Positions 23,046 through 31,278 of a DNA stretch of 64,000 nucleotides are shown here, in pieces. Made by a program: the position numbers and the translations under genes. Location of the stretch: the IMG/VR virus record IMGVR_UViG_3300026549_001031. One strand, written 5' to 3'. Numbering within the stretch: the first letter of the stretch is position 1; the number at the start of each line of letters is the position of its first letter. Source of the stretch: a virus (Duplodnaviria; Heunggongvirae; Uroviricota; Caudoviricetes). The notes under the pieces were generated by a model. It saw only the letters and a list, made by a program, of their open reading frames with translations, ran no database searches and was not told where the DNA came from.

Positions 23046-23942
23046 ATGCAGTTGGTACTCATAGCAATCATTAAAGGTGGTAGGCAGTATAAACAAATTA
23101 GTGGGTTTAGAATAATTGACAGTGATACACGAGAAGTACAGGATATTGCATATAATAATGTAATTAGTACATTAAGAAATGGAAATGCAACAGTTGATGG
23201 AATTGATGTATCAGGGTCTGAACCTAAGGGCAGCAATGGTAGTTTTGATAGATATGCACAGATTGCTGATGGAGTACCTGTTGGTAAATGCCCTGCAGTG
23301 ATATTAAAAGAGTATGCAAATAAGGTTTATGATGTGTCAGACCCTTTTGGTAGAGTGGTTCAGATGACAGAGCAATCAATAATTGATTATGCATCTGTAG
23401 AGGGTTTAGCCAACGGTAAGGTAGTAAATGAGCATATTAGCAGTATAAATGGATCATATAATGCTGATAAGTCATTACTTAGGGCAAAATCAGGAGACAA
23501 GCTGAAACAGAAAATGCGTATACTTGGAGAGACTAATACAGTACTGAATGATGATAATTACTTAGAAAGTATAAAGTCAGACGAAGAAGCAGTATCAGTT
23601 GGCGTAGGTTGTTTAGGTATATGCAGTGAGGCGTTTAGGGAGTGTCCTAATGTAAAAGAGATACACTTACCTTCAACTTGTGTAAACTTTGATGAAAAAG
23701 CCTTTGCAGGTTTGAAATACTTGGAGAAGATAAATATACCTGATGGTACAGTGGAGATTTCTAGAATGTGTTTTTTGAATTGTAGGGCACTTAAGGAAAT
23801 TGAGTTACCTAACTCTATAAGGAAAGTTGGAGACAGTGCTTTTAGAGGAACAGCACTCAAGAAAGTAAGTGTAGGACCTGTAAGGTTTAGTCAGGGTAGG
23901 ACTTGCTTCCCTGCATCAGCTAGGTTACAAATAAGACATTAG
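23046..23942 (+). CDS. Shared N-terminal module pair + BspA-type leucine-rich repeats
   Basis: N-terminal GFRIIDSD/GSNGSFDRY/LANGKVV; C-terminal AFRECPNVKEIHLP, AFAGLKYLEKINIP, CFLNCRALKEIELP (LRR_5). Confidence 0.8.
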   Translation: MQLVLIAIIKGGRQYKQISGFRIIDSDTREVQDIAYNNVISTLRNGNATVDGIDVSGSEPKGSNGSFDRYAQIADGVPVGKCPAVILKEYANKVYDVSDPFGRVVQMTEQSIIDYASVEGLANGKVVNEHISSINGSYNADKSLLRAKSGDKLKQKMRILGETNTVLNDDNYLESIKSDEEAVSVGVGCLGICSEAFRECPNVKEIHLPSTCVNFDEKAFAGLKYLEKINIPDGTVEISRMCFLNCRALKEIELPNSIRKVGDSAFRGTALKKVSVGPVRFSQGRTCFPASARLQIRH

Positions 23943-23959
23943 GAGGAGGAAAGATAGAC

Positions 23960-30231: not shown

Positions 30232-30279
30232 TCATACAGTGGGAAATAGAAATAAAGTATTAAAATAGGAGGAAGCAAC

Positions 30280-31278
30280 ATGGCAGTAAAGAGATTTGGT
30301 GCAGTGGTAGGTATTGAAGAGAATAAAGAAAATAAGGTATACAGAGTTGTAATTGCACAGTACAATCAAAATGCTGATGGACAGACAGATTGGCAGTTCA
30401 GTTGTAGGAAAATGACTGAATCAGAATTATTTGGTACATTGACAAATGGAGCACAGTACATAAATGTTTCATTGGGTGGCTCTGGTAAAATTGAGTGGAA
30501 GTCAGGTGCAGCTAGTAGGTTTAACAGCAATAAAAGGCATAGACCTTATGTAATTATTTCACAGATCTTAAATAATGATGATAAGATCATAGGTTTTAAG
30601 GTTGCAGACTTTGATGGAAATGTAAAAAACATTAAAGCAAAAGAGATGATTGCATATGGTTACAGAATGACAAAGTTTGGAGACACACCTGTTCAAAATG
30701 CAATGTTTGTTCCATCTGATGAAAAGACAGGTAAGAAAGCTTTCTACAAGGCTTATCCAGGTAGTAAACTTTTTAAGGAAAAACTGGTCGTTAATAAAAA
30801 TAAATACAACAAGCAGGCTAAGAAACCTGACATCAATAAAAATAAAGAGTCACTTAGTAAATTGGAGCAGATATACACTCCTGAACAAATTAAGCAGTTG
30901 AAAGAGGGTAAAGCACAGGGAGTTGACATTAAGATCTATGCAAATCCTGCTTTATCAGCAGAGCAAATGAAATGGCTTAAGTTTGGTTTAACTAAAGGTG
31001 CTGATGTAAGATGTATTGCATTTCCTGAATTTAAGTTAGAAGCAATGCAGTATTATGTATGCGAGTTAATTGATGGAATGGACATTAAGAAGTATTTAAA
31101 CACAGAATACAATGCTGAACAGATTGCAGAATTGAGTTTAGCAGTTGAGGAGGGATTGGACATTAGTAATATGGCTAATCCTAAGAATTCAGCTTCTGAC
31201 ATGGCTGAGATAAGAGAGAGATTAGAGTATAACATTTGGAATGATATGTTAGTCACTAAGGATGGAAGTTGGAAGTAG
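30280..31278 (+). CDS. Divergent shared module + C-terminal short helical repeats
   Basis: VIISQILNNDDKIIGFKVADFDGNVKNI; repeats EQIKQLKEGKAQGVDIKIYANP, EQMKWLKFGL, EQIAELSLAVEEGLDISNMANP. Confidence 0.7.
   Translation: MAVKRFGAVVGIEENKENKVYRVVIAQYNQNADGQTDWQFSCRKMTESELFGTLTNGAQYINVSLGGSGKIEWKSGAASRFNSNKRHRPYVIISQILNNDDKIIGFKVADFDGNVKNIKAKEMIAYGYRMTKFGDTPVQNAMFVPSDEKTGKKAFYKAYPGSKLFKEKLVVNKNKYNKQAKKPDINKNKESLSKLEQIYTPEQIKQLKEGKAQGVDIKIYANPALSAEQMKWLKFGLTKGADVRCIAFPEFKLEAMQYYVCELIDGMDIKKYLNTEYNAEQIAELSLAVEEGLDISNMANPKNSASDMAEIRERLEYNIWNDMLVTKDGSWK

Follow-up and report, generated by a model that had tools for sequence, protein, structure and literature searches.

Four proteins of one operon begin with a domain that, as judged from sequence and model comparisons, is a derived tandem pair of ~65-aa DUF3892-like units. 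The operon lies in a window of 64,000 nt (the whole stretch of DNA analyzed here) and encodes a DUF2201 peptidase-vWA protein together with a MoxR-type ATPase. The shared domain, referred to below as the tag, is probably a common address label on unrelated proteins, a candidate role. The tags follow their cargoes and not their neighbors, and all the cargoes are under purifying selection. Tags and cargoes appear to behave as old conserved machinery of the element, and not as the sensor/effector set of an arms race.

Organization and conservation of the operon

Five open reading frames, all on the + strand between 23046 and 31278, are confirmed at the positions given in an earlier, sequence-only reading of this DNA. 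That reading had described a five-gene operon. The five genes stand, but the two terminators that bracket them also enclose a sixth, frameshifted HAD-like gene (31282-31775). The features of the region are as follows.

22867..22905, + strand: terminator-like hairpin upstream of the operon (hairpin search)
23046..23942, + strand: tag and BspA-type LRR protein, 298 aa from the ATG (LRR_5, E 9e-20)
23046..23474, + strand: double DUF3892-like domain, copy 1 (BLASTP, HMM)
23960..26671, + strand: tag and 750-aa uncharacterized region, the 903-aa protein (no significant Pfam match for the cargo)
23960..24397, + strand: double DUF3892-like domain, copy 2, the modeled copy (pLDDT 97, pTM 0.90)
26702..28990, + strand: tag, DUF2201 zincin peptidase, acidic linker and vWA with intact MIDAS (Pfam, phrog_1314)
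26702..27139, + strand: double DUF3892-like domain, copy 3 (BLASTP, HMM)
29050..30231, + strand: MoxR-type AAA+ ATPase, untagged (AAA_5, phrog_1297)
30280..31278, + strand: divergent double unit (~residues 1-165) and short helical repeats (187-315), the 332-aa protein (HMM)
31282..31775, + strand: HAD-like phosphatase gene, frameshifted near 31474 (DxDGTL motif read from the sequence)
31795..31822, + strand: terminator-like hairpin closing the operon (hairpin search)

The same frameshift in the HAD-like gene is found in RNA runs X1 and X3, while run X7 has an extra base near 31474; the gene is intact in the related element L003, as a 168-aa ORF. Bovine-gut RNA contigs from two studies end at 31784 and 31786, and the contigs of one study break upstream of the operon, with an end at 22938 and the next start at 23037. 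These contig ends, from RNA runs that may represent the source sample and may contain DNA, give a weak hint of a single transcription unit. Promoter-like sites are as frequent as in shuffled sequence (46 observed, 46.7 in shuffles), and no convincing promoter could be fixed for the operon. Perfect sigma-70 consensus promoters are located 5′ of the IF3 gene (region 21483-22938) and at 31855-31883, and one RNA contig (21532 to 22938) spans the IF3 region and stops just beyond the terminator.

The cargoes described earlier (LRR_5 in the first protein, DUF2201_N and vWA in the third) are borne out, and Pfam finds nothing significant for the cargoes of the 903-aa and 332-aa proteins. The peptidase-vWA protein matches DUF2201_N (E 8e-30), the DUF2201 vWA (E 1.6e-13) and phrog_1314 (E 4e-73). 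Its HExxH motif occupies residues 306-310; among tagged relatives, this motif is kept in 34/34 and the MIDAS DxSGS in 31/31. The MoxR protein matches AAA_5 (E 9e-5, over the cut-off), phrog_1297 (E 3e-60) and midasin (E 2e-10). Its Walker A (43-50), Walker B (D111-E112) and arginine finger (R168) are intact, and all three are invariant in 7 MoxR orthologs. The 903-aa protein contains a conserved helical domain with invariant Cys260, His264 and Cys313 (24737-24898) that could form a metal site, and it ends in two LSxKQ-type helical repeats (26200-26671). Its cargo belongs to the same family as a class of 750-800 aa (hhalign probability 100), and a PDB sequence search with this cargo gives compositional matches only. 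The helical repeats that end the 332-aa protein (30838-31224) belong to an unnamed repeat family; two Finegoldia magna plasmids each match them at 39 places. By hydropathy, none of the operon proteins has a transmembrane segment (highest 19-residue mean 1.65).

Homologs of the domain are located on gut metagenome contigs of 465-628 kb (the related elements are labeled L003, L005, L006, L008, L011, L013, L025-L028, G003 and G004). They share a colinear backbone of ParB-HNH, IF3, SmpB, MscS and Clp genes, and the family ranges from ~0.45 to 0.63 Mb with a GC content of 31-38%. The host element is probably a member of this family of giant gut elements, which are probably conjugative. The related records encode a VirB4/TraG-like ATPase (DUF87, E 3e-6, over the cut-off; P-loop_TraG, E 4e-5, just under it) and an FtsK-type ATPase (E 6e-15, over the cut-off), clustered with a MinD-like ATPase. 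No relaxase, tagged or untagged, was identified in these partial records. Gut Bacillota are, in our reading, probably the hosts, as candidates only; a GTDB search with MoxR returned short MAG contigs, one of them labeled Lachnospiraceae, too weak for a host call. The shared domain itself has no match in PLSDB plasmids, INPHARED phages or GTDB contigs. In the window, every credible gene is on one strand, with a GC skew of ~+0.3, and the genes for IF3, SmpB, tRNA-Gln and tmRNA (21680-22189, 32833-33285, 41079-41153 and 42183-42550) are away from their usual chromosomal contexts.

The synteny comparison suggested by the sequence-only reading was made with nine distinct elements (the window clade, L005, L006, L008, L011, L013, L026, G003 and G004). 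The tagged peptidase-vWA, MoxR and tagged 332-aa genes are present together in 9/9, the 903-aa family in 5/9 and the LRR gene in 4/9. The first three genes are therefore the core, and the LRR and 903-aa genes are accessory. The loci were mostly found using core-gene queries, which partly pre-selects the trio, and the flanking ParB-HNH, IF3, SmpB and Clp genes are equally syntenic. As a result, the 9/9 trio is supportive and not specific, and synteny alone cannot single out the operon from its backbone. Phage homologs of DUF2201 occur in 725 records, and the 30 listed align solely beyond residue 229, without the tag, which argues that the tag was added to the peptidase-vWA in the giant-element lineage.

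Two loci, each on a single contig, have unusual arrangements. In L013 (12262-13920), directly upstream of the active MoxR, there is a second MoxR with an N-terminal tag, in which Walker A is intact and both Walker B and the arginine finger are missing; a search for its relatives, of low sensitivity, found only itself. The other is an in-frame fusion of the LRR and 903-aa genes in L028. A gene of 226-246 aa is inserted beside MoxR in L005, L013, L026 and G004, and its product starts with K-L-x-x-L-G, similar to a K-[AM]-R-[ILM]-[LI]-G motif that follows the tag in some proteins (window ~23510; G003 193297).

The shared domain and its spread

The common N-terminal domain proposed for three of the proteins is well supported. 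The first ~145 aa of the LRR, 903-aa and peptidase-vWA proteins are 33-36% identical over ~150 aa in pairwise BLASTP (E 3.6e-19, 1.2e-16 and 4.1e-18, or 1e-16 to 4e-19 overall), and the four motifs listed for them are present. The divergent copy claimed for the 332-aa protein is recovered by both a three-sequence HMM (E 6.9e-6) and a 150-sequence HMM (E 8.8e-7), and its orthologs score up to 1e-11. It is the sole further significant match of the three-sequence profile in the window. MoxR gives no match with either HMM, as had been reported. A profile search of the full library, another of the earlier suggestions, finds 953 clusters (50% identity) with the domain, 550 of them at E<=1e-10. The named family to which the domain is related is DUF3892 (PF13031), which is uncharacterized. 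The domain is N-terminal in the best 150 of the 953 clusters.

The model of the domain, with 150 relatives as the alignment, consists of two halves, each with three strands, a helix and two strands. The two halves align with each other (hhalign E 3e-4), and the first half superimposes on the Atlas model of DUF3892 with a TM score of 0.65 (by target) and an rmsd of 1.9 over 66 residues. PF13031 is weakly matched by 17/150 relatives of the domain (best E 4e-4). Moreover, the 21022 protein, alone among the window proteins, passes the PF13031 cut-off (24.6 bits vs 22.3), and an alignment of its family with the domain extends across 124 columns (hhalign probability 94.5, E 7.5e-8). It is these observations (the fold match, the weak PF13031 matches and the 21022 protein) that argue for a derived DUF3892-like pair. 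The four operon proteins give no match to PF13031 over the Pfam gathering cut-off, and to that extent the description of the domain as unnamed holds; it is only partly so, because of its internal duplication of a DUF3892-like unit.

Residues G62, N64, G65, R69, G104, N125, K127 and S138 are invariant or near-invariant across paralogs with 38% mean identity. By inspection, these columns show no catalytic-type pattern, and the domain, with its two ~65-aa units, is non-catalytic and compact. The net charge is positive in 83% of tags (mean +2.7), and is +1, -3 and +3 for the window copies. The domain has no sequence match in the PDB, and Foldseek against the PDB gives nothing clear (best E 0.19). 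The VIA fold search places it nearest to chromo-like domains (best Z 3.4), and a low-confidence model of the 21022 protein reaches Z 4.1 among solved structures; a check for dsRBD/HPF-like folds thus yields best Z scores of just 3.4 and 4.1. A 92-aa Bacillus phage protein is the single match in BFVD, and a weak one (E 0.018). Matches to GFRP (28/150 members, below the cut-off) were set aside as chance.

The unit is not limited to the operon, as had been implied. Seven window proteins carry it: the four of the operon and three others.

3541..4479, + strand: protein with two divergent N-terminal units (HMM E 0.0025; hhalign E 3.4e-7)
7241..8206, + strand: protein with a single C-terminal unit (HMM E 0.0012; first-half HMM E 1.5e-4)
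21022..21468, + strand: two-unit free-standing DUF3892 protein (PF13031; upstream position conserved in related elements)

The non-unit halves of the 3541 and 7241 proteins resemble each other in motif and may be reminiscent of PGDYG-type domains. Unit-bearing ORFs number 14 in a 268-kb record and 10 in a 250-kb record, both partial, an ORF being counted when either of two profiles, one of them iterated over the unit families, gave E<0.01; reversed ORFs reach 0.036 and 0.11 at best. The proteins with a single unit include a DUF285 protein, a DUF4379 Zn-finger protein and LigA, the NAD-dependent DNA ligase. As a set, the single units match the tag's first half with hhalign E 2e-10 (best of 30 shuffles, 0.002). 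In G003 (226161-239105, locus L047), LigA, the DUF285 protein and two uncharacterized proteins are headed by single units within 13 kb.

Tagged cargoes fall into five classes, plus WG-repeat and DUF285 singletons. L025 (1-14040) has a tandem run of ~650-aa double-unit paralogs, with five clear copies and a probable sixth, which contain a conserved uncharacterized domain and degenerate LRRs; this run adjoins a conjugation-like cluster. Full double units also head 1300-aa LRR proteins in L027, and neither these nor the L025 array is near MoxR. The repeat cargoes are of extracellular type and have here no signal peptide or transmembrane segment. No toxic effector families were found among the tagged cargoes.

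A candidate address label and its alternatives

The idea of a common address tag fits a domain that has no catalytic features, nearly always sits at the N-terminus, evolves under purifying selection and is attached to many unrelated cargoes; the common ligand is presumed. We tentatively favor, as a plausible reading that could well be wrong, a portable docking module of the element family, the polar face of which binds a common element-specific partner or site, with the MoxR module as one of its users. The presence of the tag on unrelated cytoplasmic proteins throughout the element, its invariant polar residues, the intact peptidase, MIDAS and Walker motifs, the tagged dead MoxR paralog and the LRR/903-aa fusion are all in favor. 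Against one common partner, the double and single units are only distantly related, and their partners may differ. The rapid divergence of the peptidase's own tag also counts against this reading.

In this proposed mechanism, the invariant polar face of the tag would bind one common partner or site, and the shared ligand would gather all the tagged proteins at one place. The tag on the peptidase-vWA would carry this protein there, and MoxR with it. According to PMC7159879 (section 8), the vWA captures a peptide through its MIDAS and the MoxR hexamer then remodels it. By analogy with known MoxR-vWA pairs, the vWA/MIDAS would couple here to the untagged MoxR hexamer, which would remodel proteins at the tag site, and the zincin domain may cleave them. 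The tagged 332-aa protein would be a constant partner; the LRR and 903-aa proteins would take part optionally, as clients or adaptors. On this view the MoxR module would use the tag alongside others and would not explain why the tag exists. A complex prediction for MoxR with the peptidase and 903-aa tags (score 0.00, mark 0.32) points neither way. A more specific version is possible and rather less probable: the gut elements would have made DUF3892, a defense-island domain, a private address code on dozens of their proteins. Their own like-addressed MoxR/peptidase would then act at a single location, for example a compartment of the element or its transfer channel, where it would assemble, deliver or clear the proteins bearing the address.

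Two alternatives differ from the docking reading mainly in the identity of the ligand. Each unit could be an independent nucleic-acid- or ribosome-binding domain that tethers proteins to RNA, ribosomes or element DNA, with no dedicated protein partner. We consider this rather unlikely. PMC12419801 gives DUF3892 a fold of the dsRBD and HPF kind, with a three-stranded meander and a helix, and proposes it as a putative sensor of RNA or ribosomes, and the mostly positive charge of the tags, the unit on LigA and the IF3, SmpB, tmRNA and tRNA genes of the element are in keeping with it. The sensing is itself a proposal, however, the window copies are near neutral, and it is hard to see what LRR, WG-repeat and DUF285 cargoes would do with nucleic acids. 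Alternatively, the unit could be a translocation signal for the conjugation machine of the element, through which the peptidase, LigA and the repeat proteins would reach a recipient cell. The VirB4/TraG-like and FtsK-type ATPases, the position of the L025 array and the usually extracellular repeat cargoes lacking their own signals are consistent with it. The TraG matches are under the Pfam cut-off and no tagged relaxase was identified. MoxR, which the vWA protein requires, bears no tag, and a double unit that stands alone would have nothing to carry across. This makes the signal unlikely.

The evolution of the tags bears on the version that goes back to the sequence-only reading, in which a dedicated MoxR-vWA conflict machine is joined by a sensor and effectors through an EAD-like homotypic adaptor. 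The copies on the vWA core component, adjacent genes and elsewhere resemble the EAD pattern described in PMC7159879, and the constant core trio and the tagged dead MoxR paralog agree with it. However, 14/15 tags resemble their counterpart on the same cargo elsewhere in the family more than the adjacent copy, whereas adjacent EADs resemble each other most. A 124-row tree shows 11 changes of cargo label vs 65 when shuffled, which is what one would expect if the paralogs were old and constrained by a single common ligand, and a 21-row tree, poorly resolved, agrees with grouping by cargo. The dN/dS ratios (approximate, computed against L003) are 0.00-0.27 for the tags and 0.03-0.25 for folded cargo regions, like those of IF3 (0.12) and SmpB (0.09). 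Strong variation is confined to the peptidase linkers. The fastest-diverging tag is that of the peptidase (dN/dS 0.27; 23-31% identity in L005), and the most constrained gene of the operon is that of the 332-aa protein. An EAD-type conflict system is argued against because the tags track their cargoes and the cargoes evolve under purifying selection; in addition, the cargoes include no toxic effector. The MoxR-centered form is weakened further by the presence of units on LigA, the DUF285 and Zn-finger proteins and the arrays, far from MoxR. The LRR protein does not suit the role of recruited sensor either, being absent in 5/9 elements, with a dN/dS of 0.09 and no diversification. We regard this version as quite improbable.

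A virion as destination of the tag, with the element a jumbo phage and MoxR/peptidase-vWA its assembly chaperone (a role proposed for this pair in group 2.2 jumbo phages in PMC7824862), is very improbable: four related records are filed in IMG/VR, but with one Pfam family checked for each gene, the terminase (PF03237) has nothing over the cut-off in four partial records and the portal (PF04860) no match in the two largest, and conjugation-type ATPases are present. It is equally hard to credit that the domain is a by-product of 5′ gene-end duplication, a leader for expression or folding whose copies share no binding role, which the nearly constant N-terminal position and the easily duplicated tandem arrays would allow, against the invariant polar residues in 150 paralogs, the purifying selection, and the one C-terminal and several free-standing copies.

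Comparison with known systems

Both DUF3892 and the MoxR/peptidase-vWA pair of phage type occur widely, with functions that have so far been proposed by analysis, and here they are fused. With this fusion, and with a unit on the well-understood LigA, a domain of 65 or 145 aa could reveal the DUF3892 ligand and candidate peptidase substrates. A shared partner would show how a family of giant gut elements organizes its proteins, and should the tag prove to direct transfer, it would offer a portable way of labeling proteins for delivery in Clostridia.

A MoxR-clade AAA+ protein (Walker A/B, arginine finger) and an adjacent HExxH/MIDAS-vWA protein are both present here. The operon shares this adjacency and the intact catalytic motifs with the phage MoxR/DUF2201 pair (PHROG 1297 and 1314; jumbo group 2.2, PMC7824862). 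The listed phage homologs have no tag, whereas the peptidase-vWA here has an N-terminal double unit and the pair is followed by a constant tagged 332-aa partner, on a probably conjugative element. The unit has the same three-strand, helix and hairpin arrangement as DUF3892 (PF13031). In bioRxiv 10.1101/2022.04.27.489752 and PMC12419801, DUF3892 is linked to defense operons and islands, free or fused to Min-Wnt; here it is duplicated, below the cut-off and present in at least 10 proteins per element.

Like the tag, EADs (Kaur et al. 2020, PMC7159879) are small non-enzymatic domains on a core component, its neighbors and further genes. They are defined in part by adjacent copies being the closest relatives of each other. 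This neighbor similarity and the hypervariable enzymatic effectors are absent here (low dN/dS, no effector families), no VMAP, iSTAND, FtsH or propeller third component was recognized, and there is a housekeeping cargo, LigA, instead.

The Hodor megaplasmids of gut Bacillota, as characterized in PMC12934698, are conjugative, 211-389 kb in size with 44-47% GC, and often found in viral databases. The elements described here are likewise >300 kb, from the gut, probably conjugative and filed in a virus database. In comparison, their size (0.45-0.63 Mb) and GC content (31-38%) set them apart by description, and they are probably another family.

A literature search that covered few subscription papers found no description of the fusion, the tandem form, the element-wide expansion or the element family, and no paper naming both DUF2201 and MoxR. 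The system is not categorically new, because its ATPase/peptidase pair has been described before and its unit groups with DUF3892. What appears to be new here is the fusion of a DUF3892-like unit to the peptidase-vWA, its tandem form, its expansion across the element, and the element family itself.
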